Virus record (IMG/VR): IMGVR_UViG_3300017903_001334 | Coordinates: 1 to 45,980 of that record | DNA from: a virus | Taxonomy: Duplodnaviria; Caudoviricetes | Length of the DNA stretch: 45,980 nucleotides | Strand: one strand, 5' to 3' | In this document: piece by piece, positions 672 through 45,980 of the stretch | Layout: each line of letters starts with the position of its first letter | How positions within the stretch are numbered: the stretch's first letter is position 1 | Made by a program: the position numbers and the translations under genes | Notes under the pieces: generated by a model | What the model was told of the DNA's origin: nothing | What the model saw: only the letters and a program-made list of their open reading frames with translations | Database searches by the model: none

Positions 672-920
672 ATGGCTTACGTTCAGAGTAACAACCCGTT
701 TAAGAAGCAAAAACTGTCTGCAAAAGCAGCAAAAGATAAGGCTGCAAGAGATTTAGCCTATGCAAACACTAGAGACAGAGAAATAAAACGCGCTGATTCA
801 CAGAAAAAGCATCGAGAAAATCCAAAAATGAGTAATATGGACTACGATCACAAGGATAATAAATTCAAAACACCTAAAGCTAATCGTGGTAATGACGGAA
901 ATGGCACAAAAAAAGAGTAG
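672..920 (+). CDS. Small basic protein with MAYVQSNNPFKK leader and degenerate HNH-like motif
   Basis: Leader shared with the ORFs at 44077 and 44400. C-terminal DYDHKD...KANRG resembles minimal phage HNH proteins. Confidence 0.75.
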   Translation: MAYVQSNNPFKKQKLSAKAAKDKAARDLAYANTRDREIKRADSQKKHRENPKMSNMDYDHKDNKFKTPKANRGNDGNGTKKE

Positions 921-922
921 AA

Positions 923-1267
923 ATGACTAAAAGACGTATAATGCACGGCAAAAGACGCAGAAGGTCACCTTTAAAAAACATAGCAGCGAAAACAGGTATG
1001 ATGGCAGCGCTTTCAAACGGCGCTATAGGTGGTAAAAATGACAATACTGCAGATAAAAATAAAGAAAAGCCATTAGCAAATCAAGGAGGAGACTATTTAA
1101 CAAGAGATGAAGCTAACAAAATGATGGAAACGCGCATTTTAAAAGGTACATCTCAAAAGCCTAAAGAAAACAAACTTTCGGAAGGTGGTAGCGAAGCAGC
1201 TGAAATGCAAAGTAAACTTAAATTACCATCACAAGGAGGAGCTAGGCTACTTTTTGGTAAAAGATAG
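923..1267 (+). CDS. Small basic protein with N-terminal RRRR-SPLK motif
   Basis: ORF packed directly after the previous gene. Begins MTKRRIMHGKRRRRSPLK. Confidence 0.7.
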   Translation: MTKRRIMHGKRRRRSPLKNIAAKTGMMAALSNGAIGGKNDNTADKNKEKPLANQGGDYLTRDEANKMMETRILKGTSQKPKENKLSEGGSEAAEMQSKLKLPSQGGARLLFGKR

Positions 1268-1275
1268 TTAAATAA

Positions 1276-1285
1276 AGTAATAATA
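1276..1285 (+). promoter_or_regulatory. Putative late promoter motif AGTAATAATA
   Basis: Intergenic GTAATAATATATA, also present at 43683. Confidence 0.45.
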
Positions 1286-1323
1286 TATACATCGATAAAT
1301 AGATTAATCTAAAAAAAAAGAAA

Positions 1324-2376
1324 ATGGCATTTAAAATGAAAAACCCATCTATGGCCAAAATGGTTAAAGCAGCAGGCGACAACCGCGCAGCCATGAAGAT
1401 GAAGATGGAAGAAACTGCAGCTAAAATGAAAAAAGAGTCTGCAATGAAGCTTGATCCAGCAAAATCTAAAAGATCTAGTCTTGACAGAGAGTCTATGGCT
1501 AAGTTAAAAGAGAAAGCTTCAGCTATGAAAAAAGAAGGAGAAAGTCCTAGGCTTAAGAAAGCAATAAAAAATTCAGAAAGATTAGCGAAAAAAGCTGAGA
1601 GCCTTGGGAAAAAGTCTACCATGAAAGCAAACCGCGAAAACTTAAAATCTTCTAAAGGCGCTGGTACAACGACTCAATACACTAAAAATCCAGCTTACAT
1701 AGAGTATGAAAAGAAAAGAAAATCTCACAGAGATAGAGGCGGAGATGATGCGTCATTTACTATGGAACAACCTCCAAAGTACATTAAGGTTTCTGAAAGA
1801 AAAATTGGAGACAAGAAATCTCCTAGCAAGATGAAAAAGTCTGCTATGAAGATGAAAAAAGATAGCGCTGCAAAATTCAATGCTAAATTAAAAGCTGCAT
1901 CGAAAGCTGGTAAGCTTAGCGGTAAATTTAAAGAAGCTGTTGACGCTGCTCCTGCTAAGATGAAGAAGTCTGCTATGAAGAAAAAGTCTCATGAAGAGAA
2001 GATGGATAAAATTGCTAGTAGAAATCAAAAGAAGATTGATCGTATCACTGGTAAAGCTAAAGAAGATAGAATGGCTGCTAGAGCAGAGAAAAAAGCTAAG
2101 AAAGAGCAAGAGAAAATCACAAGACGCGACGAAAGAGAGACGCGTAAATATAATAACATGCTTGATCGAGATGAGAGAGCACGAGCTAGAGAAGCTGGTA
2201 GAGCTGCCGCTTCTGAATCTAGAGCAACTAGAAGAATAGATAGAAAATCAACTAAACTTCAAGGTAAAGAAGATAAAGCTATTGCTAGAGCTGACAAGAA
2301 AATTGCTAAGCAAAAAGCAAAGAAGCAAAAAGCAATGAATAAGAACTACAAGAAGATGAACAAGCTTGTAGGATAA
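1324..2376 (+). CDS. Lys/Arg/Ala/Met-rich, histone-like modular protein (350 aa); putative internal head or DNA-condensing polyprotein
   Basis: MAFKMK leader, four SAMK motifs plus AAMK/STMK/SPSK/SAAK/APAK variants, and a charged helical C-terminus. Confidence 0.8.
   Translation: MAFKMKNPSMAKMVKAAGDNRAAMKMKMEETAAKMKKESAMKLDPAKSKRSSLDRESMAKLKEKASAMKKEGESPRLKKAIKNSERLAKKAESLGKKSTMKANRENLKSSKGAGTTTQYTKNPAYIEYEKKRKSHRDRGGDDASFTMEQPPKYIKVSERKIGDKKSPSKMKKSAMKMKKDSAAKFNAKLKAASKAGKLSGKFKEAVDAAPAKMKKSAMKKKSHEEKMDKIASRNQKKIDRITGKAKEDRMAARAEKKAKKEQEKITRRDERETRKYNNMLDRDERARAREAGRAAASESRATRRIDRKSTKLQGKEDKAIARADKKIAKQKAKKQKAMNKNYKKMNKLVG
1819..1986 (+). repeat. Imperfect in-frame direct repeat encoding [SA]P[SA]KMKKSAMK
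   Basis: TCTCCTAGCAAGATGAAAAAGTCTGCTATGAAG at 1819 versus GCTCCTGCTAAGATGAAGAAGTCTGCTATGAAG at 1948. Confidence 0.8.
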
Positions 2377-2411
2377 TACTAATTACTAACCAATAAATAA
2401 AACCAATTAAA

Positions 2412-2708: not shown

Positions 2709-2739
2709 ACTCAAAACTAATTTAATTAAATCTAATCTA

Positions 2740-4968: not shown

Positions 4969-5409
4969 TTGAGATTAACTAGTCACGATTTACGTGAATT
5001 ACAAATCCTAAAGTACTACAGGCTCACTAGAAAGTGGGCTTGTAGAACTTACGGGTTGACAGACGCAGATCTTGAGTTATTGATTTACTTAGACTGCAAA
5101 AAAAGATTTACACGCAAAGAGTTTGAAAATGGTGAATATACTCTTAGTTGGGATAAACACCGTTGGGAAAAGCTAAGAAGAGAAGGCTGGATTGAAGTAT
5201 GGCGTCATCGAAATCGAACTACGATTAAGTACAGCGTCTTTAAAACTTCTTTTAAATGCAGCCATTTAATTAGCAGAATATACAGAATATTATTAGGCGA
5301 AGAAGACGTGCCTACTACTGAGAGAAACGTCTTTTACAAAAATGAAACATATACAGATAAAGTGTTTAACAAAGCTTTAGACGATATGATAAAAGACCCA
5401 GAAAGATAA
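4969..5409 (+). CDS. Putative winged-helix (MarR-like) DNA-binding protein
   Basis: TTG start. GLTDADLELLIYL...KLRREGWIEV pattern is typical of winged HTH proteins. Confidence 0.6.
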   Translation: MRLTSHDLRELQILKYYRLTRKWACRTYGLTDADLELLIYLDCKKRFTRKEFENGEYTLSWDKHRWEKLRREGWIEVWRHRNRTTIKYSVFKTSFKCSHLISRIYRILLGEEDVPTTERNVFYKNETYTDKVFNKALDDMIKDPER

Positions 5410-5768
5410 TGGCGTTTAAACTAGGTAGCGAAAGTAGAAAAATAAGAACCTCGAAGAACACACCTATATTTAGAAAAAAGCTAGACAAAGGCATTGTGGC
5501 TGAGGCTAACTTAGATGGGTCTATATACATAAATAAAAATGTAAAGCCTGGTAGCGCTTTGGAAAAGAGAGCTATTAAGCATGAGCAGAAACATATCGAC
5601 GATATGCGTGATCCTAAAATAGCATTATCTTACGGAGATGACTACGTTAGATACAAAGGGAAAACATATCCTAGAAAAAATGGTAAAATTAAGTATAACG
5701 GCAAATGGTCCGAAGAAGGTAGCATGGACTTTCCTTGGGAGCAAAGAGCAAAAAAAGCAGAAAAGTAA
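5409..5768 (+). CDS. Small zincin-like metallopeptidase (HExxH) with MAFK N-terminus
   Basis: GSIYIN strand, AIKHEQKH at 5580-5594, and a downstream PWEQRA supplying a candidate third Zn ligand. Confidence 0.75.
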   Translation: MAFKLGSESRKIRTSKNTPIFRKKLDKGIVAEANLDGSIYINKNVKPGSALEKRAIKHEQKHIDDMRDPKIALSYGDDYVRYKGKTYPRKNGKIKYNGKWSEEGSMDFPWEQRAKKAEK

Positions 5769-6202
5769 TGGCATTTAAAATGAGAAGTAACTCAATGGCT
5801 AAAATGGCCAAAGAGGCTGGAGCTGGAAGACCTTCAGCTATGAAGAAAATTGTTGTAGCAGGAAGCAAAGCAGCTAAGAAAGCTGAAAGAGAAGCTAGAA
5901 AAGAAGCAAAAAAAGCAGCTAGACAAGAAAGAAAAGACTTAAAGGCTGTCGGAGGAGATCAAGCTAAGCTAGATAAGAAAAGAGAAATGGCTGCAGCTCG
6001 AGAAAAAAGAAGAGAGCAATACAAAATCGACAACGCGGAAGCTTTAGCTAGACAAGGTAAAGGTTATATGACTAGAGGTGAAAGCGGCGGTACAGATTAT
6101 GTTAGAGCTACAAGAGGCGGTACTGAAAATGTTGAGAGAGGAGCAGTTTCAAGAGAAGCAGGTATGGCTAGAAATCCTATGAATCTAAAGAAAAAGAAAT
6201 GA
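5768..6202 (+). CDS. Basic protein with MAFKMR...PSAMKK leader (start corrected from 5735)
   Basis: ATG overlaps the previous stop (TAATG). The first ~26 aa are paralogous to the leader of 1324..2376. Confidence 0.8.
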   Translation: MAFKMRSNSMAKMAKEAGAGRPSAMKKIVVAGSKAAKKAEREARKEAKKAARQERKDLKAVGGDQAKLDKKREMAAAREKRREQYKIDNAEALARQGKGYMTRGESGGTDYVRATRGGTENVERGAVSREAGMARNPMNLKKKK

Positions 6203-14570: not shown

Positions 14571-15731
14571 ATGGAAGAAAACGAAAACATTGAAGAAGTA
14601 CAAAACGAAGAGACTGTACAAGAAGAGCAAGTAGAAGAGCAAGAATCGCCTGTGTCTTACAAAGATGATGGCACTATTGTTCTAGATATGAACAAAATAA
14701 ACGAATTAGAAAATGCCGTTCAGGAGCAAAACACAGATGAGGTATCTGTTCGCGACGAATCCGAAACTAGCGAAGAAGTACGCGGAGAAAACGTCCAAGC
14801 AGCAGATGAGCAAGTTACCGAACAAAGCGAAGAGCCGACAGAAGAATTAAAAGAATTAGTTCAAGAAGCTAACGACGCTATTCAACAATCTGAAAAAACA
14901 GGTGATCCTTTACCTGAGAATATAGAAAAATTAATCGGTTTTATGAACGAAACCGGTGGTAGCGTTGAAGATTACGTAAGATTAAATCAAGACTATAGCG
15001 ATATGGACAATCTTACAGCCTTGAACGAATATTATAAAATAACTAAGCCGCATTTATCGGCTGAGGAAAGAGACTTTATGATGGACGATCAATTTTCTTT
15101 TGACGAAGAGGTTGACGACGATCGTGAAATTAGAAGAAAAAAGTTAGCTTTAAAAGAGCAGGTTGCCGAAGCTAAGGCCTATTTAGACGGGCAAAAGTCT
15201 AAGTATTACGACGAGATTAAAGCAAAGCCAATTGTTAGCGATGAATATCAAAAGGCAATGGATTTCTTTAATCGCTATAACCAAGAGGTTGAAGATAATC
15301 AACGAGTTGCAGAAGAGCGATCTAATGTATTTGTAGAAAAAACTAACAATCTATTTAACAACGATTTCAAAGGTTTTGAATATAAAGTTGGAGATAAAAG
15401 TTTTTATTACAACGTTAAAGAGCCTAATAAAGTAAAAGAAACTCAAAGCGATATTAACAACTTCATTAGCAAATATATTGATAGTGAAGGAAAGATTACT
15501 AACGCTGGAGAGTATCATAGAGCTTTATATGCAGCTATGAATGCTGACGCTTTAGCACAGCACTTTTACGAGCAAGGCAAGGCCGATGCTTTGAAAGAGA
15601 ACGTTGCTAAAGCAAAAAATATCGATATGTCTCCTAGAGCTTCATATGGTGAAGTTGAGTCGAACGGTATTAAAGTTAGAGCACTTGATTTAGATACAAC
15701 CCCTTCGTTCAAATTTAAAAAACGAAATTAA
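14571..15731 (+). CDS. Putative capsid scaffolding protein
   Basis: Very acidic disordered N-terminus and helical C-terminus (HFYEQGKADA). Lies between portal and capsid. Confidence 0.75.
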   Translation: MEENENIEEVQNEETVQEEQVEEQESPVSYKDDGTIVLDMNKINELENAVQEQNTDEVSVRDESETSEEVRGENVQAADEQVTEQSEEPTEELKELVQEANDAIQQSEKTGDPLPENIEKLIGFMNETGGSVEDYVRLNQDYSDMDNLTALNEYYKITKPHLSAEERDFMMDDQFSFDEEVDDDREIRRKKLALKEQVAEAKAYLDGQKSKYYDEIKAKPIVSDEYQKAMDFFNRYNQEVEDNQRVAEERSNVFVEKTNNLFNNDFKGFEYKVGDKSFYYNVKEPNKVKETQSDINNFISKYIDSEGKITNAGEYHRALYAAMNADALAQHFYEQGKADALKENVAKAKNIDMSPRASYGEVESNGIKVRALDLDTTPSFKFKKRN

Positions 15732-29205: not shown

Positions 29206-29910
29206 ATGTCATTTACAGTAGCAACAATAGCAGCAGTAGGTTTAGGCGCAGCTAAAGGTATATCTGGCTTTATAAAGAATAGAAAAGCAAAAAAAGAACA
29301 AGAAAAAGCTAACGCAGAGCTCAAAGAGCGAATGAAGGCTTATGAAAACTTAGACACTTCTAATCCTTACGCTGGTCTTAAAAACGAAATGGAAGGTATG
29401 GAAAATACCTTTGAAGACTTAACAGTTAATACACAGCAAGCTGAATTTGAAAGAGATGCTTTTCAACAGCAGCAAGCAAATATCATGGGTAGTATGGAAG
29501 CTGGCGGATCATTTAGCGCTGGTAATATACAAGCTTTAGCAGGTGCAGCGGCACAGCAGTCTAGGCAGGCTTCAGCTAGTATAGGTGCTCAAGAAGCTGC
29601 TAACCAACAAGCAGCAGCTCAAGGCGCTGCCGATGTTCAATCACAAACGCTTCAAGGTAGACAGCAAGTTGGTATGATGAAAGCTCAAGGAGAAGCTATG
29701 TCTAGACAAATGGAAGCTGATAAACAAGCTACACTTTTAGGCATGGCACAAGAAGGTAAAGCTCAGGCAGATGCTAACAAAGGCGCTGCAGAGCAGCAGA
29801 TGATAGGTGGTATTACAGATATGGTTGGAGCTTTTTTTATGAAAGATCCAAAAATGAAATCATCTGTTAGCAAACCTAAGCGTAAGAAAAAAGCTAAATC
29901 TAAAAAATAA
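29206..29910 (+). CDS. Putative ejection (internal virion) protein 1
   Basis: Hydrophobic Gly/Ala N-terminus, Gln/Ala-rich coiled coil and basic C-tail. First of three genes of increasing size. Confidence 0.7.
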   Translation: MSFTVATIAAVGLGAAKGISGFIKNRKAKKEQEKANAELKERMKAYENLDTSNPYAGLKNEMEGMENTFEDLTVNTQQAEFERDAFQQQQANIMGSMEAGGSFSAGNIQALAGAAAQQSRQASASIGAQEAANQQAAAQGAADVQSQTLQGRQQVGMMKAQGEAMSRQMEADKQATLLGMAQEGKAQADANKGAAEQQMIGGITDMVGAFFMKDPKMKSSVSKPKRKKKAKSKK

Positions 29911-29916: not shown

Positions 29917-31677
29917 ATGGCACAAGATCCGAATTACACAAGTTACTATGACCAATACATGGCTAATAGAGCAGCTAGAGATCAAGAAAGAATTAAGCTA
30001 GCTAGCGCTGGCGTGCCTGTTGAGAACATGGGTATAACAGGATTATCTAGCGCTTTTGATAGTCTTCAGGCTATGATACGTGATTATAAAAACTCTGACG
30101 AGTACAAAGCCAAAGTAGCTGCAAAGCGAGAAGAAAGAGCAGCTAAAGAAAAAAATAAAGAAGCGGTTGATAAGCAAATTGAAGGACGTGATCCTAACAA
30201 AAAAAATACAACGAAGGAGGAAACTGCTGAAGCTCTAAGAACTAACACAACTCCTAAAGATCCTGAAGTAAAAATAAATCCTTCTCAAAATGTTACTAAT
30301 TACGCTAGCTTTATGCCATCGGCAAATAAAATGAAAAGCCCTATGAAATACGGTAGAGCAGACGCAACTTTAATAGCTGGCGTTAGACGTATGAATCAAG
30401 CTAGAAACTCTGTTAACGTTTTTCAACCTATTGATGATTTAGTCGATAGAGTTAGATTAATGAAACAAGAGGTTAGAAACAAAGCTAATAAAGAGCTAGA
30501 GCAATATAGCTTAGAAAAAACTAATGACGCTTTTAGTACGTTTAAAAATGGCACTAACGCGGCTACTCAGTATTTATCTGAGCAAAAAAAGCTAATGTCA
30601 GATTTAAAAGCGCGAGCTGAATTAGTTGGAGTTAATAGCCCTGAATACCCTAAGTTAAAAGAGCAAATCATTGCTATAGAAGATAAGTGGAAAGCACTGA
30701 ACACTCAAATGGTAAACATACAAACAGCAAAAGATACTTGGGCTAATATGCATGGTAGAGGTGAGGGTGAAGGAAATAACGATGGTAGATTTAGATATTC
30801 TAATGCCATGCTTGATCTGCCAGAGTATGATTACTTAAACCAAATACACAGCGGTCAAGCTGACATGCTTATAAACAACGAGGGTCAAATTGAGTTTGTA
30901 GTAGCTAATATGAACGCTACTGGCGAAACTATGGTTGTCAGCTTAGATGATTTAGAAAATAGCATATACAAAAGAGATGACGCTGGTCTTGAAGCTTACG
31001 CTAAATATAGAAGTCAAGTTGAAGCTACTCAAAAAAATAATTTACCTTTCAACCAAGGTAAAGCAGAGAGTTTAGTTAACCAATTGTTTGGAACAAGACA
31101 AGATCCTAATAAAAAAAATATGGTATCTTGGATGTATGATGATTTAGACGGTGATGGTAAAACATGGATCGATGACTTTTCTTTAGAGAACTCTGACTTT
31201 GACGTAAATTTGTTTAGTCCTAACGCAGACTGGAACCAGATGTACAATGAAGATCAAACTGTAGGCGAGTGGTTAAGAGATGAGCTAAAAGCTTACTATG
31301 TTGAAAGGCTTAGAGGTTTTCACAACAACTTAGTTAAAGCTAATGGCAAGTCTACAATAAGTGAATATGGAACTGGTGATTATGACGAAAATTACAATAA
31401 CAAAAGCAATAAGCCTTTGTCCGCGGCTGAAAGATTAAGACAGCAAAAAATAAAAGATCAAGAGCTACAAATTAAAAATTACCAAGAATCGTTTACCCCA
31501 AATACACAAATTATTGATATTCCAGGTAGATCTAAAGCTCAATTTAGAATGACTGCAGACGGTAATTATCATTACTATGTTAATGGTAAATTACAGACTC
31601 GACCGGTTGAAGGACAAGGTGACCAACCGATGGTATTTACTTATGAGCAAGCTCGCAACTATAAACCTTTATTTTAA
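29917..31677 (+). CDS. Putative ejection protein 2 (586 aa)
   Basis: Helical protein between ejection protein 1 and the giant protein. Internal KSPMK at aa 140-144. Confidence 0.65.
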   Translation: MAQDPNYTSYYDQYMANRAARDQERIKLASAGVPVENMGITGLSSAFDSLQAMIRDYKNSDEYKAKVAAKREERAAKEKNKEAVDKQIEGRDPNKKNTTKEETAEALRTNTTPKDPEVKINPSQNVTNYASFMPSANKMKSPMKYGRADATLIAGVRRMNQARNSVNVFQPIDDLVDRVRLMKQEVRNKANKELEQYSLEKTNDAFSTFKNGTNAATQYLSEQKKLMSDLKARAELVGVNSPEYPKLKEQIIAIEDKWKALNTQMVNIQTAKDTWANMHGRGEGEGNNDGRFRYSNAMLDLPEYDYLNQIHSGQADMLINNEGQIEFVVANMNATGETMVVSLDDLENSIYKRDDAGLEAYAKYRSQVEATQKNNLPFNQGKAESLVNQLFGTRQDPNKKNMVSWMYDDLDGDGKTWIDDFSLENSDFDVNLFSPNADWNQMYNEDQTVGEWLRDELKAYYVERLRGFHNNLVKANGKSTISEYGTGDYDENYNNKSNKPLSAAERLRQQKIKDQELQIKNYQESFTPNTQIIDIPGRSKAQFRMTADGNYHYYVNGKLQTRPVEGQGDQPMVFTYEQARNYKPLF

Positions 31678-31683: not shown

Positions 31684-34600
31684 ATGTACAAAGATCAAGA
31701 TGGAAACACATACGACGAGCAGTCGTTATCTGTATTAGCTAAGCAGTCAGGCTTAGACTTAGCAATGTATACAAGCATGAATGGCCTGGAAAAGTCAACG
31801 AGCCCTCAGATCGAGGATGCAACTGCAGGGCCCGCAAGTACGGCATCCAACTTGGGAGTTTATTCTTTGGGCTCTTTATCGACAAGACTAGCTGTTGCAA
31901 AACTGATAGGTAAAGATACACAAAGCTCTAGCCCTATGAAGTTTAATGTTCCTATGGGGCCTGAGCCTAGCGAAGATGAAAGCGAAGCTCGAACTATAGA
32001 AGAGATAGACAAGGTTAAAGAAGACGCTGATAAGTTAGCTTCTGAATTTGAAGCGGCAGAGCAAGCCGCGAAAAAGCAAGAAGAACAAAAAAGACTCAAT
32101 GCTAAAGTTGCGGCTATGTCTAATCAACAATATAGAGATTATTCTGCTCAATTAGAAAAATTGCCGCCAATGAGTTACGAAGCCGTTAACATTCAAGAGT
32201 TAATGGATAACATTGTTCAGCTTGAATACGAAAGGCTTTATGATCCTACGTTTCAAGCTAAGTCGGACTATGATTACAACAAAGCTCAAATAGAATCGAT
32301 GAACATACCAAAAACTGCTGAAAAAACAATAGTCATGTACGACGCAGATGGTAATGTTACTGAAGATAAAACTCAAGCTGTAAAGTATGACGAAGCTATT
32401 AAATTTACTGAAAACACAGAAAATTTGTCCCTCTCCGACCAAGAGGCTATTCGCCAAAACAACATGTACAATAGGATTTTAGATGTGTACACTAGCAATG
32501 AGGGGCTGGGGCCTAAGACAACTTTTTTTGGTTTTGATTTATTTAAGCAAGAAATACCTGAAGCAGAGCAGCAAGTGTTAGATGAAGAAGTTAAAAGAGA
32601 GATGATCGGCTTGTTGTCGCGAGGCGCCGGTATGGATAGAGCTAAACAAAAAATACTTGGAAACAAAGGAGATATATCAGACATTACTTTAGAAGAAAGA
32701 AAACAGTTAATGTCAGAAGCAACGAGTATTGTTTTAAATAAAAGAAATTCTTTAATAGCAGACTCTTTTGGTGAATTAATAGACAGGCAAGATATAGTAG
32801 AGTCTAATCAAGATATATTAAACAAAGACGTAGAACAAACTATTGCTGTATATTCTAGTAAGTTTGAAGATTTACAAAAAAAGTTTGATTTGTTAGGAGA
32901 TGTTGATGAAAACTCTGACTATCAAGTCATAGAAGCGTACAATAATTTAGTTTCTGAATATCAAGATTTAGATGCTAAATACAAAGATTACTTAGAACAA
33001 ACAAGGCAAAGACAAAACTCTTTAAGCAGCGAATTTAACAGCGTTAAAGGTTTAGTTGAAACGCTACAAGAAGATTATGAAAATAACTTTGTAGAGTTAG
33101 ATATAAACGCTTTAACAGGTCAACTTAACTCTCCGCTTGAAGAGACTACAAAAGCTTACTCTGAGTATAAAGAAAGATTTTATGAAAAAGCTAACAACTC
33201 AGACAATATAGCAAGCTCTATGGTCTATAAGTTGACAGACTCCGCTCTTAAGCTTTTAGACGCCTCTGACGTGTTTGCGTACTTAAACCCATTATATTCA
33301 ACCGTAGGATTAACTGGAATAGCTTACGACGCGTTTGGAGTAGACTCTTTCCTTTCAGGTGGTGAAAAAAAATACACCGCTACTGATTATATTTTAGAAA
33401 GTCTTTTTCAAAATCCTATAAGTATACCTACTTCAGAAGGCGAGACCGCGGTAACAAAAGATTTTGATCAACTTGGTGAAGCTACGGTTGAACTATTTAC
33501 TAGTGGTTTTGATAATAAATCAAGACAGCTGTTTAAACAAGCTACAGGCAACTTTTTTGGAGAAGATATAACCGGCATGAAAACACTTAACGCAGTGTTA
33601 ACAGGTCTTCCTTACATGATTGGTATTATGAAAGGAAAAACGTTTACTAAAGTAAAAGATGTTCCTAAGTTTTTTAAAAACAGCCATAAAAAAGTATTTA
33701 AAAAGAAATCAGCTAACAATGTTTTAAGAGATGTTAATATGATAACGGCTTCTTATAAGATGACTGTTTTCGATGCTTATCATGAAGGTATTGATCGAGG
33801 GCTTGATAAAGACAAGGCTTTACTGTATGCTAACGTTTCATCTGTAATAACAGGTTTAACTCAAATGATTATGCCTGACGAGTTCTTTGTAAAAGGTGGC
33901 GCTGGATCTCTTGCGCTTAAAACTTTTGCTGGAAATTTAAAAAGAGCTACAAGTCAAGCCGCAGCTAAGAAAGCTGTTACAACTTTTTTTACAAACATAG
34001 CGAAAGAAATTGGGGAAGAAGAGTTAGACTTTGTAATGCAAGAAGTACTAAAAAGTATATCTATAAGCGGTCATGAAACAGCTGCTCTTAATATATCTTC
34101 TCACTTAGAGCTCTTATTTAATACAGTTGCTTTAAGTGGTACTGTTGGTGCTGTTGGTGCTAGAAATAGATATAAAACAGAAAGAAAAACTCTCAACAAG
34201 GCAATTATTAGAGAAACTTACGATATTAACGAAAGTTTAAACGACAGATTATCTGTAATACAAAGAAAAAAAGAGATAATTGAGAAGTTAACAACGTTAA
34301 GTCAAGAGCAAAAAGATCGTAGAATAGAAGAGCTTGATAAACAAATACAAAGTATTTATAAAGCGCAAACTTACAATAACAATATAAAAAACGCTGCAGC
34401 TGTAGCACCTGAATTTATTAACTACGATCAACTAGACATATTAAGACAAAGACAAGAGCTAGAAAACGAATTAAAAACAGCCAAAGGAGAAAAGAAAAAA
34501 GAAATACAAGATAAAATAGGTGAGCTAGAAGTAGAGTTTGAAAACGCTAAAGTAAACCAACAGGCCGATGTTATACTAGATAGAACAATAGAGAGTATTC

Positions 34601-37600
34601 AAAAATTTTCTGGCGACAGCTTTATAGTTGGTGAAGACGTTGAAGATACTCAGCAAAAGCTAACAGCTATCAACGAAGCTTATAAAGAAATAAACGAACA
34701 AGAAGGAAAAGAAGTATATAAAATACTTACAGATCAAGAGATTGAAGATGCGGCGAGGCAAGAAGGATTTAACTTTGGAGATGTTAAAGTTATAAACAAG
34801 CAAGTATCAAGAGCTACCGGCAACACAAATGTAGCTGCGCATGAGTTTTTACATGACATATTAAAACAAACACTAAATACTAATAAGCAAGCAGCTTTAA
34901 AAATAGCAGACGCTTTTGGTAATTTATTGATAAGTTTAGATCCAGAGCAGTTTAATAATAGTACATTTAGAAAAAAGTTAGAGCTATATCAAACAACACA
35001 GGCTGACGTAAACAGAATAATTGAAGAAAATCCTAACGCTACGAGTCGAGAGTTAGATGAGTTAATAAACAAGCAAATAGACGAAGATATTCACAAGCAA
35101 GCTATAGAAGTTATAACACTAGCATCGGATGCTTTTGCTACTGGTGATCTAAGCTTTGATGTTTTACAAAAAAGAGGTCTTACAGATAGAATACGAAGAG
35201 TAAGACAGAACTTACAAGGAACTTTTCTAGACAGATTTGCAATGGAGATAGAGTTTAACACTGGTGCTGATGTGTTTAACTTTGTAAAAGACTACAATAC
35301 TAGTGTAAAGAAAAGTAAATTAACTAAAGCTCAAAGAGCGTTGTTAGACGGTAAGATACAGGGTAGGCTTACAGAAGGTGAGCAAACGCAAGATGTAGGC
35401 CCTCAAGAATCTAGAGTTTATCAAAGAGTTGAAGAAAGAAAAGATCAAATAACCTCTACAGACGAAAGCACAAAAAGAGAAGGTGTTTTCATGGCCGCAA
35501 TGGAGCTTGAAAACGAAATAGATAGAAGATTACCTACAATAGAAGGTATGACTGCTGAAGAAAGAGCTGACGTAGTTAGAAATTTTATGTTTAATGAAAC
35601 AAGAGGTTTGGTTGGCCTATTAAATAAATACAATCCTGACATAAACGATAGCGTTATGGGTTACTTAAACGCTAAGCAAAGAGGTATAAGCTTACTAGAC
35701 GCTAGACTTCAAGAGTTTTATCAGAACGATCCTAGATTTGGAAACATTATACAATCAACTAGCGAAGAAGCTGTTGGTACAAAGGTTGAAAGAAGAACAG
35801 CTGAAGACGCTGAACCATCAGCTAAGCCAAAGCAACCTAAAACAAAAGGTGTTATAGTAGCTAAAAGATTTAATGCTGTTAAAGACGCTCAAGCATTAGC
35901 TAACAAAGAGTTTGAAAATATAAAAGATGATATAACTTCTTTGGCTGATACGCCTAGAATAATGACTAAGCTAGTTAGCGAGATAACAGGTATACCAGTT
36001 AAAAAGCTACAAGAGTTTATTATCGATGAAAACGGTAAGAAGGTTAAGAATCCAAGCTATTTAGCTAATTTATCTGATAGTGAGCTAGCTTCTGCTCAAA
36101 GAGCCGTCAAGAAATATGATAGCGTAATACTAGAGATACTACCAAAGCAGCACACTGTAAAGCTAGTTAAGGTTAAAGGTGCAGACGGTGTAACTAGAGA
36201 GGTTGAAAGACCTGACAAAGCAACTAAAATATCTGGAAAAGTTAAAAAAGCTTTATACGTTAAAGGCAAAAGAAAAGATAACTTAACTCCATTTAATAAA
36301 AAGCCTGGGCTAAAAGAAAAAGATGTTAGAGAGCTTGCTGGTATAGTAGACGGCGTGCCTGATAGATCAGACAGAAACACTTCCGCAAGTGTGCTTGGTA
36401 TATGGACTACTGTAGATAAAGTTTGGAGTAATCAAGAAATTAGGTTAGAAGCTGCGCGAAGAGGATTACCTATGCAATGGATGTCTGGAATACGTAATGG
36501 CAATGACGCTATATTATTCTCTAAGTCTGGTGTTCAAGAGGTTGGATCTTTTGCTAGATCAATACCTGTAGAAAGCCGAGGCTTTTTCTTCGATCGTATA
36601 CCTGAGTTTGCGAACGAGCCTGTTCTTGGAAACGATTACAAGAGCGTTGAAAACGCTGTGCAAAGAGTTTGGGGTGATTTACCGTTTGTTGACGTTCCTA
36701 CAATCGCTAGAGGTATACATAAAGCTTTCCAATACATTACGCCTAAGATAGCGAAAGACCCTGTTAAACTAGCAGAGAAGCTGCTTACGGTTGATAATGA
36801 TATGCTATCTAAAGTTAGGCAGTTTGCTGGTAGTAGTATAGAAGCTTCTAAAGCTTTTCAAGATCCTGAAAGAGTTAAAAAAATGGTTGCTACTCAATCG
36901 GCTATTGCAAACGAAATATGGGACGCTAGTAATCCTGAATTGTCATTGCTAAAAATAATGATGATGAAAGGTCATTTAGCTAGCATGAGCAAAAACAAAT
37001 ATTTGCAAAGAACACAGCCTTTTCCTCCTGGACAAGCTTTTATTGATAACACGTTACTTACAATACCAGATATTAAAAAAGTAAATACTAAGACTGATGC
37101 AAGGGGCGGTATAAGCGTTGCATCTATAGTTTTGACTAACGGAAAAGTTGTTAAGCCAAAAATTAAAGTTAAAGGTAAAGAAGTCAATGTAACTTCTAGC
37201 CAAGGAGTTAACACAGCTATCAAAGAGCTAAAGAGCGGAGATTTAACTAAAAGAAGAAGAGATGAAAAAATAGCTCAAGAGCTTCTTAATGATATTATAG
37301 AAATAACATCTAGATATTTAAAAGAAGGTACTATAGATAATGTTGACTTAATGATGAACATGGCCTCTTTATTAAGCGGTATGAATAGCGTGTTAGCTAG
37401 AGCTGGTAAGCTAAAGTATATGACGCCAAGAGCTAGAGATGGTAAAGGGCCTTTCCGCTACGAACACATGATACCTAGAGTAGTAGTTTTAATGAACATG
37501 TTTGACGCTCACATAAACGGTAACGGTATAGAAAATGTTGCTGAGTTCTTGCAAAACTACGAGGTTGCTGTTACGTCTGTAGACATGGACGATGTATTTA

Positions 37601-40566
37601 AAGACGCGGGCTACAACTCTTCGTTACCAGTAGGTGTTACAATGCAAGATCCTTCTTGGTTTAGATACTACAACGATGAGACATTGCAAGCTAGCGACAA
37701 TAGACTAGAGCCTTTAATAGACGAAAAAGGTAATGTGCTTAAAATATCTGACGCTTACTCTAAGGTTAGTAACATGCTCACGTCTAGAGCTAATACAAAC
37801 ATGGGTATCATGATGAGTAAAGCGTCGTTTAGCGCTAGATCAACTAACGCAGATACACCTTCGAGAGGCGCTTCAGTTTTTGATTTTGATGAAACACTTA
37901 TTATAGATGGTGAAAACTTTATAATTGCTACAGATCCAAAGACTGGTGATAGAACTAAAATAAGTAGCGGTGATTGGCCTTTAAAAGGACCAAGCTTTGC
38001 TGAAAGAGGTTTTACTTTTGACTTTACAGACTTTGTAAATGTTAGAGGTGGTGTTGAAGGACCATTGCTAAATAAGCTTAGAAACAGAATAGCTAAGTAC
38101 GGCCCTAGTAATAACTTTGTGCTTACAGCTAGACCAGCGGAGTCTGCCACAGCGATACATGAGTGGCTTAAAACTAAAGGTATAAACATACCACTAGAAA
38201 ACATCACTGGCCTAGGTAATAGCACTGGCGACGCGAAAGCTGCTTGGTTTTTAGAAAAATATTCAGAAGGATATAATGATATGTACTTTGTGGATGATGC
38301 TTTGCCTAATGTTGAAGCTGTAGCTCACGTGTTTAATCAGTTAGACATGAAAGGCAAATCTGTTCAAGCAAAAATACAGTTTAGCAAGAGCTTAAACAAT
38401 GGATTTAACAACATGCTTGAAAGAACTAAAGGTGTTGGTGCTGAAAAAATATTTTCTAGGGTTGAGGCTAAGAAGAGAGGTAAAAACAAAGGTGGATTTA
38501 CGTTGTTTGTCCCACCTTCAGCTGAAGACTTTACAGGGTTATTACGATACTTTGTTGGTCGTGGAGCGCAAGGTGATGCTGATATAAAGTTTTTTGAAGA
38601 AGCTTTAATAAAGCCTTTTGCTAGAGCTGATCGCGAGATGAGCGAGATTAAACAACGTATGAGAGATGAATACAAAGCTCTTCGTAAAGCTTTTCCTGAT
38701 GTTAAAAAGAGGTTAGGTAAAGAGACAGATATAAAAGGATATACACTAGATTCAGCGATAAGAGTTTATTTGTTTAATAAAGCTGGGTATGAAGTACCAG
38801 GTTTAGCAGAGTCAACTAAAAGAAAGCTAATAAAGATAGTAGAATCAGATGCGGAGGTGAAAGCTTTTGCTGATGGCTTGTCTATGATAACAAGAGAATC
38901 AAACGGTTATACCAAGCCTGATGAAAATTGGGACGTTGGTAATATAGCTATGGACTTAGACAACGCTGTTAACAAGGTTAGTAGATCAGAATTTTTAGCT
39001 GAATGGATACAAAACAAAGACGAAATATTCTCACAAAAAAACTTAAATAAAATAGAAGCCGTGTACGGTAGTGACTTTAGATCTGCTTTAGAAGACATAC
39101 TGTATCGTATGGAAACTGGACAAAATAGACCTAAAGGTAAAACAGCTTTTGAAAATAAATGGAACAACTGGATCAACAGCTCTGTTGGAGCGATTATGTT
39201 CTTTAACGCTAGATCAGCTGTACTACAGACGTTATCTACAGTTAACTTTATCAATTTTGAAGAAAACAATATATTTGCTGCTTCTAGAGCTTTTGCAAAT
39301 CAAAAACAATATTGGTCTGACTTTGTTTTCTTGTTTAACTCAGACTTCTTAAAAAACAGAAGAGCTGGTTTAGCGACTAATGTGAATGAAGCAGAGCTAG
39401 CTAGTGCTGTTGCTAGCGCTAGAAATAAAGCTATGGCCGCTCTTAGATATTTACTTAAAATAGGTTTTACGCCTACACAAGTTGCTGATAGTTTCGCTAT
39501 CGCGTCTGGTGGCGCTACATTTTATAGAAATAGAGTTAAAAAGTATTTAAAAGAAGGTAAATCACAGCAAGAAGCTGAGGATCAAGCAATGTTAGACTTT
39601 AGAGAGATAGCAGAAGAAACACAGCAGTCTGCTAGACCAGATCGTATATCGCAGCAACAAGCTTCTAATTTAGGTCGTATTATATTAGCGTTTGCTAATA
39701 CGCCAATGCAATACAATAGACTTATTAAAAAAGCGGCTGGTGACTTAATAAACCGTAGAGGTGATTGGAGATCAAATGTCTCTCGTATATTGTATTATGG
39801 TGCTGCACAAAACTTTATATTTGCGTCACTACAAAATGCTTTATTTGCTATGGCTTTCAGTGATGATGAAGATGAAGATAAAGAGGAAATAAAAGAGCAA
39901 AGAATACTAAACAGTATGCTAGACTCTCTATTAAGAGGCTCTGGTATATACGGCGCCGCTTTAGCTACTGTTAAAAACACCATACTTGAATACATGGAAC
40001 AAGACGAAAAAGGTTTTAGAGCAGACTGGGGTCAAGTTGTGGTTGAAGGCTTGCAAGTATCCCCACCTATAGGATCTAAAGCTAGAAAACTTTATAGCGC
40101 ATTAAACACTAGAAAGTTTAATAAAGACGTAATGAAGCGCATGTCTATGTTTGATTACAATAATCCTGCTTGGATCGCTATAGGTAATGTTGTTGAAGCT
40201 ACTACAAACGTGCCAATGGCTAGAGCTATACGTAAAATAGACAACTTACGCGAAGCGATGAATCAAGATAACACTAACTTACAAAGGTTATTTTTAACTT
40301 TAGGTTGGAGCTCTTGGGATTTAAACGTTGGTAAGAAAGTTGTGCGTAATGAAGGCAAAAGTAACGAGTATACAGTATTCTTAGATGAAAGAAGACAAGC
40401 TGTTGAAGAAGTTAAAACTCAAATAAAAGAAGAAAAGAAACAAAATAATAAAAAAGAAAAACAAGAAAAAGCAAAAGCTAATAGATGTGTTTCTTATACT
40501 TCTCAAGGTACAAGATGTAAAAAGACTGCAATGCCAGGCAAGAAAGTTTGTTATTTGCATGACTAA
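31684..40566 (+). CDS. Giant multidomain ejection/polyvalent protein (2960 aa) with zincin, sigma-region-2-like, EHxxP, HAD phosphatase and CCCH modules
   Basis: HEFLH at 34840, FRYEHMIP at 37453, VFDFDETL/LTAR/FVDD at 37876-38300, and a terminal C-x9-C-x10-C-x2-H. Confidence 0.8.
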   Translation: MYKDQDGNTYDEQSLSVLAKQSGLDLAMYTSMNGLEKSTSPQIEDATAGPASTASNLGVYSLGSLSTRLAVAKLIGKDTQSSSPMKFNVPMGPEPSEDESEARTIEEIDKVKEDADKLASEFEAAEQAAKKQEEQKRLNAKVAAMSNQQYRDYSAQLEKLPPMSYEAVNIQELMDNIVQLEYERLYDPTFQAKSDYDYNKAQIESMNIPKTAEKTIVMYDADGNVTEDKTQAVKYDEAIKFTENTENLSLSDQEAIRQNNMYNRILDVYTSNEGLGPKTTFFGFDLFKQEIPEAEQQVLDEEVKREMIGLLSRGAGMDRAKQKILGNKGDISDITLEERKQLMSEATSIVLNKRNSLIADSFGELIDRQDIVESNQDILNKDVEQTIAVYSSKFEDLQKKFDLLGDVDENSDYQVIEAYNNLVSEYQDLDAKYKDYLEQTRQRQNSLSSEFNSVKGLVETLQEDYENNFVELDINALTGQLNSPLEETTKAYSEYKERFYEKANNSDNIASSMVYKLTDSALKLLDASDVFAYLNPLYSTVGLTGIAYDAFGVDSFLSGGEKKYTATDYILESLFQNPISIPTSEGETAVTKDFDQLGEATVELFTSGFDNKSRQLFKQATGNFFGEDITGMKTLNAVLTGLPYMIGIMKGKTFTKVKDVPKFFKNSHKKVFKKKSANNVLRDVNMITASYKMTVFDAYHEGIDRGLDKDKALLYANVSSVITGLTQMIMPDEFFVKGGAGSLALKTFAGNLKRATSQAAAKKAVTTFFTNIAKEIGEEELDFVMQEVLKSISISGHETAALNISSHLELLFNTVALSGTVGAVGARNRYKTERKTLNKAIIRETYDINESLNDRLSVIQRKKEIIEKLTTLSQEQKDRRIEELDKQIQSIYKAQTYNNNIKNAAAVAPEFINYDQLDILRQRQELENELKTAKGEKKKEIQDKIGELEVEFENAKVNQQADVILDRTIESIQKFSGDSFIVGEDVEDTQQKLTAINEAYKEINEQEGKEVYKILTDQEIEDAARQEGFNFGDVKVINKQVSRATGNTNVAAHEFLHDILKQTLNTNKQAALKIADAFGNLLISLDPEQFNNSTFRKKLELYQTTQADVNRIIEENPNATSRELDELINKQIDEDIHKQAIEVITLASDAFATGDLSFDVLQKRGLTDRIRRVRQNLQGTFLDRFAMEIEFNTGADVFNFVKDYNTSVKKSKLTKAQRALLDGKIQGRLTEGEQTQDVGPQESRVYQRVEERKDQITSTDESTKREGVFMAAMELENEIDRRLPTIEGMTAEERADVVRNFMFNETRGLVGLLNKYNPDINDSVMGYLNAKQRGISLLDARLQEFYQNDPRFGNIIQSTSEEAVGTKVERRTAEDAEPSAKPKQPKTKGVIVAKRFNAVKDAQALANKEFENIKDDITSLADTPRIMTKLVSEITGIPVKKLQEFIIDENGKKVKNPSYLANLSDSELASAQRAVKKYDSVILEILPKQHTVKLVKVKGADGVTREVERPDKATKISGKVKKALYVKGKRKDNLTPFNKKPGLKEKDVRELAGIVDGVPDRSDRNTSASVLGIWTTVDKVWSNQEIRLEAARRGLPMQWMSGIRNGNDAILFSKSGVQEVGSFARSIPVESRGFFFDRIPEFANEPVLGNDYKSVENAVQRVWGDLPFVDVPTIARGIHKAFQYITPKIAKDPVKLAEKLLTVDNDMLSKVRQFAGSSIEASKAFQDPERVKKMVATQSAIANEIWDASNPELSLLKIMMMKGHLASMSKNKYLQRTQPFPPGQAFIDNTLLTIPDIKKVNTKTDARGGISVASIVLTNGKVVKPKIKVKGKEVNVTSSQGVNTAIKELKSGDLTKRRRDEKIAQELLNDIIEITSRYLKEGTIDNVDLMMNMASLLSGMNSVLARAGKLKYMTPRARDGKGPFRYEHMIPRVVVLMNMFDAHINGNGIENVAEFLQNYEVAVTSVDMDDVFKDAGYNSSLPVGVTMQDPSWFRYYNDETLQASDNRLEPLIDEKGNVLKISDAYSKVSNMLTSRANTNMGIMMSKASFSARSTNADTPSRGASVFDFDETLIIDGENFIIATDPKTGDRTKISSGDWPLKGPSFAERGFTFDFTDFVNVRGGVEGPLLNKLRNRIAKYGPSNNFVLTARPAESATAIHEWLKTKGINIPLENITGLGNSTGDAKAAWFLEKYSEGYNDMYFVDDALPNVEAVAHVFNQLDMKGKSVQAKIQFSKSLNNGFNNMLERTKGVGAEKIFSRVEAKKRGKNKGGFTLFVPPSAEDFTGLLRYFVGRGAQGDADIKFFEEALIKPFARADREMSEIKQRMRDEYKALRKAFPDVKKRLGKETDIKGYTLDSAIRVYLFNKAGYEVPGLAESTKRKLIKIVESDAEVKAFADGLSMITRESNGYTKPDENWDVGNIAMDLDNAVNKVSRSEFLAEWIQNKDEIFSQKNLNKIEAVYGSDFRSALEDILYRMETGQNRPKGKTAFENKWNNWINSSVGAIMFFNARSAVLQTLSTVNFINFEENNIFAASRAFANQKQYWSDFVFLFNSDFLKNRRAGLATNVNEAELASAVASARNKAMAALRYLLKIGFTPTQVADSFAIASGGATFYRNRVKKYLKEGKSQQEAEDQAMLDFREIAEETQQSARPDRISQQQASNLGRIILAFANTPMQYNRLIKKAAGDLINRRGDWRSNVSRILYYGAAQNFIFASLQNALFAMAFSDDEDEDKEEIKEQRILNSMLDSLLRGSGIYGAALATVKNTILEYMEQDEKGFRADWGQVVVEGLQVSPPIGSKARKLYSALNTRKFNKDVMKRMSMFDYNNPAWIAIGNVVEATTNVPMARAIRKIDNLREAMNQDNTNLQRLFLTLGWSSWDLNVGKKVVRNEGKSNEYTVFLDERRQAVEEVKTQIKEEKKQNNKKEKQEKAKANRCVSYTSQGTRCKKTAMPGKKVCYLHD

Positions 40567-43691: not shown

Positions 43692-43696
43692 TATAG

Positions 43697-44077
43697 ATGG
43701 AAGTTGTAGTAAAAAAAATAGAATCAGATACTCAAACTAATTTGTTTGTAGGTAAAGGTATAAAAAATCCTAAATCTACTCAAATAAATAAGTTTACAAT
43801 AAAAAGATTAATACTTTCTGGTTTAGATACTGATGGTGAAATTACTTTGCTTTTAGAAGCAAAAGATTTTAGCACACAATCTACTAAAAGTATAACTTTG
43901 CTTAGTGGTTATAAAGTATATTCTAAAACTGCCAATGTTGTAATTGGTGAATCTATGGTTTTTACAGACTCTTATGATTTAAAGATAAATTCTGACCATA
44001 TACTAACAGCTTATTTAGAGTATGAAGTTAAAAAAGACGATAACTTTGTTAGATCTTTTAAAAATAATAACGAATAA
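43697..44077 (+). CDS. Hypothetical protein (126 aa)
   Basis: ORF translationally coupled to the next gene (TAATG). Confidence 0.7.
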   Translation: MEVVVKKIESDTQTNLFVGKGIKNPKSTQINKFTIKRLILSGLDTDGEITLLLEAKDFSTQSTKSITLLSGYKVYSKTANVVIGESMVFTDSYDLKINSDHILTAYLEYEVKKDDNFVRSFKNNNE

Positions 44078-44388
44078 TGCCTTACGTACAGAAAAATAAT
44101 CCGTTTAAAAAAGCAGAGCCACGTAGAACTATTGGCCCTGGTAAAAATTTTAACAAAGCTAAACCAACAGGCACAGGTGGTGCGGCTGGCGGTGGTATGA
44201 CACAAAAAGGTGTTGATGAATATAAAAGAAAAAACCCAGGTAGTAAACTTAAAACTGCTGTAACAACTAAACCTTCTAAGTTGAAACCCGGAAGTAAAGA
44301 CGCGAAAAGAAGAAAATCATTCTGTGCTAGATCAAAAAGCTGGACAAGCGAAAGAGGTCGAGCAGCTAGACGCAGATGGAACTGTTAA
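44077..44388 (+). CDS. Basic protein with MPYVQKNNPFKK leader and RRKSFCARS...RRRWNC module
   Basis: Leader shared with 672 and 44400. The C-terminal module resembles DUF6321-type phage proteins (from recall). Confidence 0.8.
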   Translation: MPYVQKNNPFKKAEPRRTIGPGKNFNKAKPTGTGGAAGGGMTQKGVDEYKRKNPGSKLKTAVTTKPSKLKPGSKDAKRRKSFCARSKSWTSERGRAARRRWNC

Positions 44389-44399
44389 AAAAAACAATT

Positions 44400-44852
44400 A
44401 TGGCATACGTACAAAAAAATAATCCTGTACCTAAAACAGGTTGTGGTAGAAGAAGAGTATCGGAAATGAAAAATCCTTTTAAATCTCAAGACATCATGAG
44501 CGATGAGTCTTTGTCTACTAAAGAGAGAGTTGCTAAAGCTCAAGGAAGAGAAGTAGGCGAGATGAATAGATCGTCTAGATTCCACCCTGACAATAAAGGT
44601 AGAGGAGTTAAAACTGCGTTCAAGTTTGGTCTTGAAGATAAAGGTATAGGCTCTGCAGCTAGAGGAACTGAAGGTATTGGACCTGACGGTAAGCCTTTGA
44701 AAATGAAGTCGCCTATGAAAAAAATTAGTGGACCTTGTAAAACCGCTGCTAAAAAAAAATTTAAAGTATGGCCTAGTGCTTATGCTTCTGGTTGGGGCGT
44801 AAGATGTACTAGAGCTGGCGGTCCAAGTAAAATGGGTAAAAGCAAAAAATAA
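44400..44852 (+). CDS. Basic modular protein with MAYVQKNNP leader, NPFK and SPMKK linkers, and a WPSAYASG module (start corrected from 44376)
   Basis: The ATG at 44400 gives the shared leader. KPLKMKSPMKK precedes C...KKKFKVWPSAYASG...C. Confidence 0.8.
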   Translation: MAYVQKNNPVPKTGCGRRRVSEMKNPFKSQDIMSDESLSTKERVAKAQGREVGEMNRSSRFHPDNKGRGVKTAFKFGLEDKGIGSAARGTEGIGPDGKPLKMKSPMKKISGPCKTAAKKKFKVWPSAYASGWGVRCTRAGGPSKMGKSKK

Positions 44853-45631
44853 TGTTTGAAAACTTCGACATAAAGAAGTATTTAGATAAAAAGCCGCCTA
44901 GCGATGGCTCTTTTACTACAACTCAAGAGATTAAAGAGTTGAATAAAATACCTATAAATGAAAGGTTTGTAAAAGAAAAAGACGATATTAAGGCTAGCTT
45001 TTTAAAATTAGCTAATAAAAAAAATTTGGATGTTGAAGGTAAAGCTATAGATAAGATAATAGACGAATCCTCTAAAGTAATATTAAAAATAAAAAAGCAT
45101 CACAATAGGCCAAGGCCAAAAGTTTTAGCTAAAAAAAACAATATTAAGTTTGACGATAAAGAGTTAGACTCAATGAAGACGCCATCGTACCCGTCAGGCC
45201 ACTCAGCTCAAGGTGTTTTAATAGCTAAGCTGCTAGCAGATAAATTTCCTAAACATGCTAAAGACTTTATGAAACTTGGCAAAGACATATCTTATAGTAG
45301 AAACGTAGCACATGCTCATTATAAATCTGATAGTAAGTTTGGTGAGCAACTAGGTAAAGATATGTTTGAGCACTTAAAGTCTGATAGTCCGTTTAAGAAA
45401 CGCATGGGTGATTTTAAACACTCAGATGCACCTGATGCTAAAGGCAAATTTAAAACATTATCAGCGGAAGCTTTAGCTAGTTGGATGATTAAGTCTCGTA
45501 AAGGTAATTTATCTAAGATTATAAGCAGCTTAAATCAACAAGTTGTATTTAGAAGAAATAAAGATCCTAAGTACGCAGCTAAAATGCGTAGAACTATGGA
45601 CATCGTAAGAAAAAGATTAAATAAAAAATGA
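44852..45631 (+). CDS. PAP2-superfamily (acid phosphatase / vanadium haloperoxidase-like) protein fused via SPFKK to a basic module
   Basis: Three PAP2 motifs: KKHHNRPRP, SYPSGHS and SRNVAHAHYKSD. SPFKK at 45386-45400. Confidence 0.85.
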   Translation: MFENFDIKKYLDKKPPSDGSFTTTQEIKELNKIPINERFVKEKDDIKASFLKLANKKNLDVEGKAIDKIIDESSKVILKIKKHHNRPRPKVLAKKNNIKFDDKELDSMKTPSYPSGHSAQGVLIAKLLADKFPKHAKDFMKLGKDISYSRNVAHAHYKSDSKFGEQLGKDMFEHLKSDSPFKKRMGDFKHSDAPDAKGKFKTLSAEALASWMIKSRKGNLSKIISSLNQQVVFRRNKDPKYAAKMRRTMDIVRKRLNKK

Positions 45632-45980
45632 GTAAAGCTTATAGAGGTGTATTAAAAGCTCGTATATCAAAGCTTTACGGTGGAGATGTTACAGTTGAAA
45701 AAGCTAGAAAGCTGAAAGCGAGAAAAGATGCTACGCCTAGAGATAAGCAGTTAGCAAATTGGTTTATAAATATGCAAACAAATCGACCATTAAAAAAACG
45801 TAAAGATCCTGTAGTTGGTACAGGTAAAAAACCTAAAGGCTCAGGTAGACGTCTATACACTGACGAAAACCCTAAAGATACTGTGCCTATTAAGTTTGCG
45901 ACAGTAGCTGATGCTAGAAAAACAATAGCCAAGGTTATGAATATAAACAAACCTTATGCTAGAAAAGTACAAATACTAAC
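45628..45980 (+). CDS. Basic modular protein, partial (MSKAYRGVLKARI...NWFINMQTN-RPLKK-RKDPVVGTGKKPKGSGRRLYTDENPKDTV...)
   Basis: ATGA overlap with the previous stop, frame open to the window end. Not in the ORF track. Confidence 0.8.
   Translation, partial: MSKAYRGVLKARISKLYGGDVTVEKARKLKARKDATPRDKQLANWFINMQTNRPLKKRKDPVVGTGKKPKGSGRRLYTDENPKDTVPIKFATVADARKTIAKVMNINKPYARKVQIL

Follow-up and report, generated by a model that had tools for sequence, protein, structure and literature searches.

Ser-Pro-hydrophobic words at the front edge of swappable basic modules in a phi38:1-like phage lineage: candidate cut sites of putative virion-cargo polyproteins

About ten unrelated proteins encoded by a stretch of tailed-phage DNA (IMG/VR record IMGVR_UViG_3300017903_001334, positions 1 to 45,980; the whole stretch of 45,980 nt is called the window) share a short word that mostly ends in Lys, and this raises the question of what the word is for. 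A sequence-only reading of the window had taken it as the linker of a capsid-targeting and polyprotein-processing system. Our analysis of the window and its relatives established that the word is a lineage-wide punctuation at the front edge of swappable modules. Polyproteins of virion cargo that are cut by a small zincin-type protease are, on balance, the best explanation, with both cleavage and packaging being predicted.

All sites listed in the sequence-only reading were found in the window. NPFK is present at 693, 44098 and 44472, SPLK at 965, SPMK at 30337, 31930 and 44709, SPFK at 45386 and RPLK at 45784, SAMK at 1438, 1519, 1840, 1969 and 5834, AAMK at 1387, STMK at 1615, SPSK at 1819 and APAK at 1948. 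When within-protein shuffles of 41 genes served as control, the loose pattern used before ([SNTRA][PA][MLFA]K) occurred 20 times versus 4.7 expected and a strict form ([SN]P[MLF]K) 8 times versus 0.65 expected, which confirmed the proposed enrichment. Since both patterns were picked after viewing the window, the relatives provided the real test. The sequence-only reading had not seen the word used in this way in terminase, portal, capsid protein or GroEL. This was correct for the strict form, and the major capsid protein (15756..17279, +) served as a negative control; the loose form matches GroEL twice (AALK 3964, SALK 4216), so that for GroEL the statement holds for the strict form only. Further loose matches lie in the muzzle protein (23454), the giant protein (33241 and 34891) and a DUF5675 protein (41577). 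Because it matches core genes, we gave up the loose pattern for classification.

Small basic genes are clustered at both ends of the window (those described here are all +). A basic protein of 82 aa (672..920) starts with a short leader ending in NPFK (693-704), followed by a module that homologues begin at their own Met, and the next basic protein (923..1267) has an Arg-rich leader ending in SPLK (965-976). The Lys-rich low-complexity protein of 350 aa at 1324..2376 has a MAFKMK leader and nine motif-like 4-mers between residues 22 and 219 (AAMK, four copies of SAMK, STMK, SPSK, APAK and SPRL), and the basic protein at 5768..6202 combines a MAFKMR leader with SAMK (5834-5845). At the other end, 44077..44388 encodes a leader ending in NPFK (44098-44109) and a DUF6321 module, which is common to T4-like, T7-like and pelagiphage genomes. 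It is followed by a three-part basic protein (44400..44852) with NPFK at 44472-44483 and SPMK at 44709-44720, the latter directly before a module named PSAY, and by a PAP2-family domain joined to a basic module named SDAP (44852..45631), the joint being SPFK (45386-45397). The last gene, a two-module basic protein that runs off the window (45628..45980), indeed has RPLK (45784-45795) between its modules, as had been read; its R is the result of a collapsed junction, for which homologues show R-P-S-P-N-K-K.

We analysed 160 related loci with 635 protein families and counted words per family, as raw 4-mer counts were swamped by conserved families. SPMK was present in 16 families (1.7 expected) and SPAK in 23 (4.35 expected), while FKMK occurred in 46 (1.85 expected) and AFKM in 33. 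From these counts we concluded that two elements exist, an N-terminal leader and an internal word. Thus, the shared motif of the sequence-only reading is real, and it consists of two signals. The consensus of the internal word is [S/N/T]-P-hydrophobic-[K/N]. Among 343 [SN]P words from 314 cargo-type proteins, F, L, M and A were favoured 2-5 fold at the third position, and K was depleted to half of the background (31/343). The final position can also be N, Q, E or D; the constant part of the word is Ser-Pro-hydrophobic and not the Lys. The 116 S-P-x-K words are written in 81 different 12-nt codings using both Ser codon groups, and this synonymous variety shows that the word is kept at the protein level.

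The short modules PSAY, SDAP, ENPK, CWxGY, SDAQR (these names, coined here, are a conserved word in each module) and DUF6321 occur in many combinations and begin with their own Met or immediately after the word. With anchors set by hand, the word was found 0-3 residues upstream of the module in 96 of 128 fused contexts at a background of 9%; hydrophobic-x-Glu was found in none of the 128. In a second test, junctions were defined by BLAST, using complete subjects and at least three supporting stand-alone homologues. Here the word was present at 140 of 254 junctions on the N side (background 14.5%), and its most common end was exactly residue 2 of the stand-alone homologues (47 counts). Many of the misses were core genes with wrongly called starts. 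The values for one, two and three supporting homologues were 197/544, 171/356 and 140/254 on the N side and 93/261, 50/94 and 47/81 on the C side (background 20-26%). An unfiltered automated test gave a two-fold excess on the N side (237/1262 versus 9.5%) and 163/1249 versus 10.7% on the C side, a weak result because truncated open reading frames (ORFs) and wrong starts diluted it. The expectation that the word falls on module boundaries of homologues was therefore borne out, also for the PAP2 gene: 22 of 23 rows of PAP2 homologues (some of them duplicates) end where SPFK begins in the window, and one runs on through SPLK into another module.

The T4 head protease has the consensus I/L-x-E. 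In T4-like genomes the same modules are part of long polyproteins, in which hydrophobic-x-Glu precedes the module in 101 of 105 contexts and the Ser-Pro word in 0 of 105; most of these contexts are relatives of one query protein, so that the counts are not independent and the comparison is weakened. The word occupies the place of the T4-like Glu-ending site before the same modules. To this extent the proposed analogy to T4 stood, while the idea of a Lys-based code needs amendment, since Lys is not constant. We found DUF6321 in 46 phage records, among which were those of T4-like cyanophages, T7-like phages and pelagiphages. Its copies in HTVC028P and S-TIP28 begin at or near their own Met, and the copy in ORF137 of S-CREM2 stands behind Glu. 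One pool of basic modules is thus common to T4-like, T7-like, pelagiphage and Bacteroidota phages, with the linkers swapped. Purified S-CREM2 virions yielded 4 peptides of ORF137, which cover 4.1% of the protein (PMC10665884, Table 3). The neighbours of the DUF6321 polyprotein in S-CREM2 (ORF136, L308:1978-2691) and in two other loci (L162, L164) are basic proteins with a T4-type MxTFxxF..E leader, and ORF136 is in the virion proteome with 8 peptides.

The strict motif was counted by protein class in 17 genomes (16 contigs and 50 kb of Panino). Basic proteins had 56 (5.6 expected) and the first ejection-type protein 5 (0.2 expected). The counts for terminase (1 versus 2.1), portal (1 versus 1.4), scaffold (0 versus 0.5), capsid (0 versus 0.3) and all other proteins (9 versus 15.9) did not exceed expectation, and ring, muzzle and giant proteins were also at or near chance. 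The opposite strand, which carries the replication arm, had one motif in total in the 16 genomes with a capsid gene. Above chance, the motif is carried only by basic late proteins and by proteins of the ejection type. The first ejection-type protein of the window (29206..29910, +) has no motif itself; its family is homologous to gp099 of phi38:1, annotated as virion structural protein (E 3e-8), and 5 of 14 related genomes have a version in which a short added leader, with SP[LMY]K at its end, immediately precedes the usual hydrophobic start. In the second (29917..31677, +), SPMK at 30337-30348 directly precedes a stretch that, judged by eye, resembles the N-terminus of the second ejection-type gene of relatives; a search of IMG/VR found no relatives of the 29917 protein. 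Neither the 29206 protein nor the PSAY module had a match in 50,697 phage records. The giant ejection-type protein (2960 aa, 31684..40566, +) contains SPMK at 31930-31941, which had been counted as a motif site. This site found no support above chance level, as giant proteins had 4 motifs versus 3.7 expected and it lacked homologue support. A profile of the giant-protein C-terminus had no match in the four annotated relatives. The giant protein of the complete genome G001 (L178:9801-20000) contains an AAA_33/Zeta-toxin-like P-loop domain (E 9e-11), and Pfam was silent on the copy of the window.

The second element, distinct from the word, is a leader at the N-terminus, M[AG][FY]K[ML]K, derived from a logo of 171 starts. 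MAFK forms the start of 40 of the 635 families, so that a short leader is shared by unrelated proteins, as is the case for T4. A similar pattern is found at the end of the acidic putative scaffold (14571..15731, +), to which this role was assigned because its gene lies between the portal and capsid genes. The protein lacks the junction motif, and its C-terminus has a conserved, leader-like F-K-F-K (15708-15719). Hydrophobic-K-hydrophobic-K was present in 44 of 51 scaffold C-termini of relatives (15708-15731 in the window), including phi38:1 and excluding elemo. The scaffold C-terminus is a candidate coat-binding strand and, since the leader has the same pattern, the leader may copy this strand. 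A third leader type, Arg-rich with M..RRR..HG[KR]RRR, occurs in the window (923-970) and in L084, L096, L101, L104, L132 and G024; its last residues are the motif or S-C-P-M-K, and the modules behind it differ.

We searched for a protease that might cut at the word. The candidate, which the sequence-only reading had not singled out, is a putative minimal zincin of 119 aa (5409..5768, +) with a MAFKL leader, HExxH at 5580-5594 and Glu111. H58, E59, H62 and E111 were invariant in 33 of 33 zincin sequences, and E111, the candidate third metal ligand, lies in helix 109-117 of the predicted model (pLDDT 84). A profile search retrieved 589 zincin clusters, with HExxH in 146 of the best 150 representatives. 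No Pfam family reached the cut-off for this protein, and a search of the ESM Atlas returned clusters of its own family only. Most of the top fold matches were zincins, with IrrE/PprI at Z 7.0 (rmsd 3.3, 83 aligned), abylysin at 5.2 and selecase at 5.0, yet the matches were weak (Foldseek PDB E 0.53, profile E 0.21). Among the best 150, all 34 carriers of more than 1000 aa were homologues of the giant protein of the window, with the zincin behind a conserved C-terminal domain. Zincins either have the leader or are part of the giant ejection-type protein, and this fits two alternative routes into the head. It was found neither in seven of seven T4-like genomes bearing the same modules nor in HTVC028P, S-TIP28 and Panino, nor in the 50,697 phage records. 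The 75 proteins of G001 included no Pfam prohead-protease family, and no gp21/HK97-type Pfam or PHROG family was detected in 40 window proteins, although a very remote one could escape. With capsid, scaffold and portal free of sites and no protease of the gp21 type detected, the system is not general head maturation. In locus L201 (G010:35179-39999, minus) the zincin is fused to the end of the giant protein through S-P-L-D-K-K.

The window represents the morphogenesis arm of an uncultured phage, with GroEL/GroES, terminase, portal, the putative scaffold, capsid protein, ring and muzzle-type tail genes and three ejection-type genes. Gene order is that of phi38:1, with homologous terminase, portal, scaffold, capsid, tail and GroEL genes, as expected for a Pervagoviridae-like phage, and the window fits the phi38:1-like 'group 2' of putative Flavobacteriaceae phages as described in PMC5332604. 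The capsid protein had 85 record matches, nearly all from phages of Flavobacterium, Cellulophaga and Maribacter, and the best 40 of the 85, phi38:1-like records, were 40-48% identical. Flavobacteriaceae are the inferred hosts. A capsid tree placed the window outside the cultured phages. Six relatives without the zincin (G014, G015, Panino, phi38:1, elemo and a Manatee Spring record; the last three viewed over 50 kb each) showed no motif excess and no leader.

Several observations weigh against processing of cargo by the zincin. The fourth position of the word is K in 139 of 343 [SN]P words, a degree of variation that is high for a protease site. The zincin has fold scores below Z 8, and activity is not implied by fold. 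The motif was present in 39 of 51 windows upstream of the zincin (background 17%) and in 29 of 47 downstream (background 36%), but the start of the stand-alone zincin core, T-P-V, confounds the upstream count; a stricter pattern was found in 22/52 and 30/50 only. Just 9 of 12 zincin-bearing genomes had an excess of the strict motif; the others were G010 (1 versus 1.4 expected), G012 (1 versus 1.15) and G020 (0 versus 1.85). Conversely, G013 has motif junctions, and no zincin was found on its contig, which lacks the giant-protein region. Cultured relatives, including those of 'group 2', have neither leader nor motif excess nor zincin, and the capsid tree suggests that the co-occurrence amounts to about one gain and one or two losses, the relevant forks being modestly supported. 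The junction contexts are related by descent. Neither leader nor motif is obligatory, as 12 module contexts and most PAP2 genes stand alone without either. Finally, the S-CREM2 authors warn of possible co-purification (PMC10665884).

Taking these points into account, we propose the following scheme for zincin-cut cargo. The proteins would enter the prohead with the leader as address, possibly by copying the F-K-F-K strand of the scaffold C-terminus; we regard the chances of this step as evenly balanced. The word would then be cleaved, in most cases directly behind residue four, recreating the N-terminus of stand-alone homologues; we regard this cleavage as probable. The cutter would be the phage's own small zinc protease (5409-5768), an assignment we slightly favour. 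The modules set free would comprise enzymes such as PAP2 and small, basic peptides associated with DNA, to be ejected into the Flavobacteriaceae host. Targeting and cutting look like separate signals, the leader and the junction motif.

The main rival is that the word is an uncut docking motif for the prohead, the scaffold or another partner, with repeats adding avidity and polyproteins staying whole. Leader and motif grade into each other (S-P-F-K-M-K, S-A-M-K-M-K), up to nine motif-like words are clustered in the 1324 protein, the scaffold ends are similar, and the fourth position is loose. A docking motif does not need a fixed spot at the module front, however, and the commonest motif end is a stand-alone N-terminus; T4-like phages place a Glu-ending word of the head-protease type at the same sites, and the zincin often has the motif on both sides. 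We therefore consider docking unlikely. The word may also be cut by a host protease, by a phage protein that escaped recognition or, once the cargo is ejected, inside the cell, with the zincin being mere cargo that has a host target. In this case the zincin would be treated as any module, with leader and motif joints, as is observed; its closest folds (IrrE/PprI, SprT-like) have targets in the cell, G013 has motifs with no zincin found, and the virion RNA polymerase of N4 is described as also holding an HExxH subdomain (PMC13434306). The T4-like phages, which own a head protease, share the other modules, yet no zincin was found in them, and it is missing from the six motif-less relatives; this makes another cutter rather improbable.

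The carriers of the word are strongly basic and of low complexity, and the S-P-x-K shape resembles the tail motifs of histone H1. The word might thus form SPKK-type DNA-binding turns in DNA-condensing proteins and not be processed at all. In H1, S/T-P-K-K repeats are dispersed in the basic tail, whereas the word is tied to module edges, favours F, L, M and A with K depleted at the third position, and stands as well next to folded enzymes and ahead of an ejection protein whose N-terminus is hydrophobic; DNA-binding turns are quite improbable. The motif often closes a short leader of stand-alone genes and would be inherited by any fusion with them, and the word may be a by-product of gene shuffling, either as leftover leader of the downstream gene or through DNA microhomology. 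In view of the 81 codings of the 116 S-P-x-K words, which point to selection on the protein, microhomology was rejected as main explanation. As fusions repeatedly retain the motif alone and drop the rest of the leader, and a role of the motif within the leader would still have to be explained, a by-product is very improbable. Modification of the word, by Lys methylation through the product of the SET-domain gene at 8704 or by Ser phosphorylation, could draw on the presence of that gene in the window and on phage protein methylation reported for phi38:1 (PMC13288928). N-P and S-A variants are common, and SET methylation was rejected as main explanation since the window was the only one of 161 loci in which the SET family was detected; we give this possibility hardly any credit.

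If cargo is cut by the zincin, the system resembles that of T4, which removes a capsid targeting sequence (CTS) from internal proteins (PMC7411985). Like the CTS of IPI-III and Alt with gp21 (PMC7411985, PMC9958956), it has a short N-terminal leader shared by unrelated proteins and a recurring short word at leader ends and module edges. In contrast to T4, the word of the window lineage is Ser-Pro-hydrophobic-Lys/Asn and not Glu-ending, the candidate cutter is a zinc metallopeptidase with no gp21-family protease found, sites on capsid, scaffold and portal are lacking, and the morphogenesis arm is of the podovirus type. The head proteases of T4, SPN3US and phiKZ are described to cut after Glu (PMC5694885). 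SPN3US gp245 (A-X-E) and the phiKZ proteases (S/A/G-X-E) would share with our lineage removable propeptides of ejection proteins, multiple sites and a lineage-specific code; as T4-related proteases of giant myophages that cut after Glu, they differ in also processing capsid and portal (PMC5694885). The zincin is similar to known minimal zincins (the minigluzincins selecase and abylysin, IrrE/PprI, SprT-like proteins) in its HExxH helix, its predicted small beta-sheet, a distal Glu as possible metal ligand and its size of about 110-120 aa, and differs from them by weak matches (Z 5-7) and by its leader or giant virion-type fusion. CrAss001 also has cargo proteins and a muzzle-type tail protein followed by ejection-type genes, and the main text of that paper does not use the words protease, proteolytic or scaffold (PMC10172136). 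The 'group 2' phages share GroEL/GroES and gene order with the window (PMC5332604). In the literature, with few subscription papers covered, we found no description of the motif, the leader or the zincin, and likewise none of DUF6321.

Some further features of the window and its relatives were noted. Two GroES-like genes are present (4292-4546 and 9072-9686), the second of which encodes 204 aa and adjoins the terminase, as in phi38:1. The terminase gene holds alternative-frame ORFs at 10501-10788 and 10912-11118. The SET-domain gene lies at 8704-9075 (Pfam E 5.6e-9); PHROG 34170 matches it and also the gene at 28746-29204, suggesting a fusion elsewhere. The replication-arm end of G001 encodes a histone H1-like Hc1 protein (L176:5390-5569, minus; Pfam E 9e-20).

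The marine phage group in question is very common, as about 8,400 IMG/VR stretches match its capsid patterns. We tentatively suggest that a podovirus lineage may have independently evolved a T4-like way to load and cut cargo, with a scaffold-mimicking leader and a Ser-Pro-x-Lys zincin that spares the capsid shell, and that modules moving between phages from a shared ocean pool may have had their linkers rewritten for the protease code of each group. If true, this would be a metalloprotease-based, cargo-only maturation in a tailed phage, while the processed heads in the papers cited here use T4-related, Glu-cutting proteases. It would also provide a rule to read many small hypothetical genes as virion cargo and to predict their mature ends.

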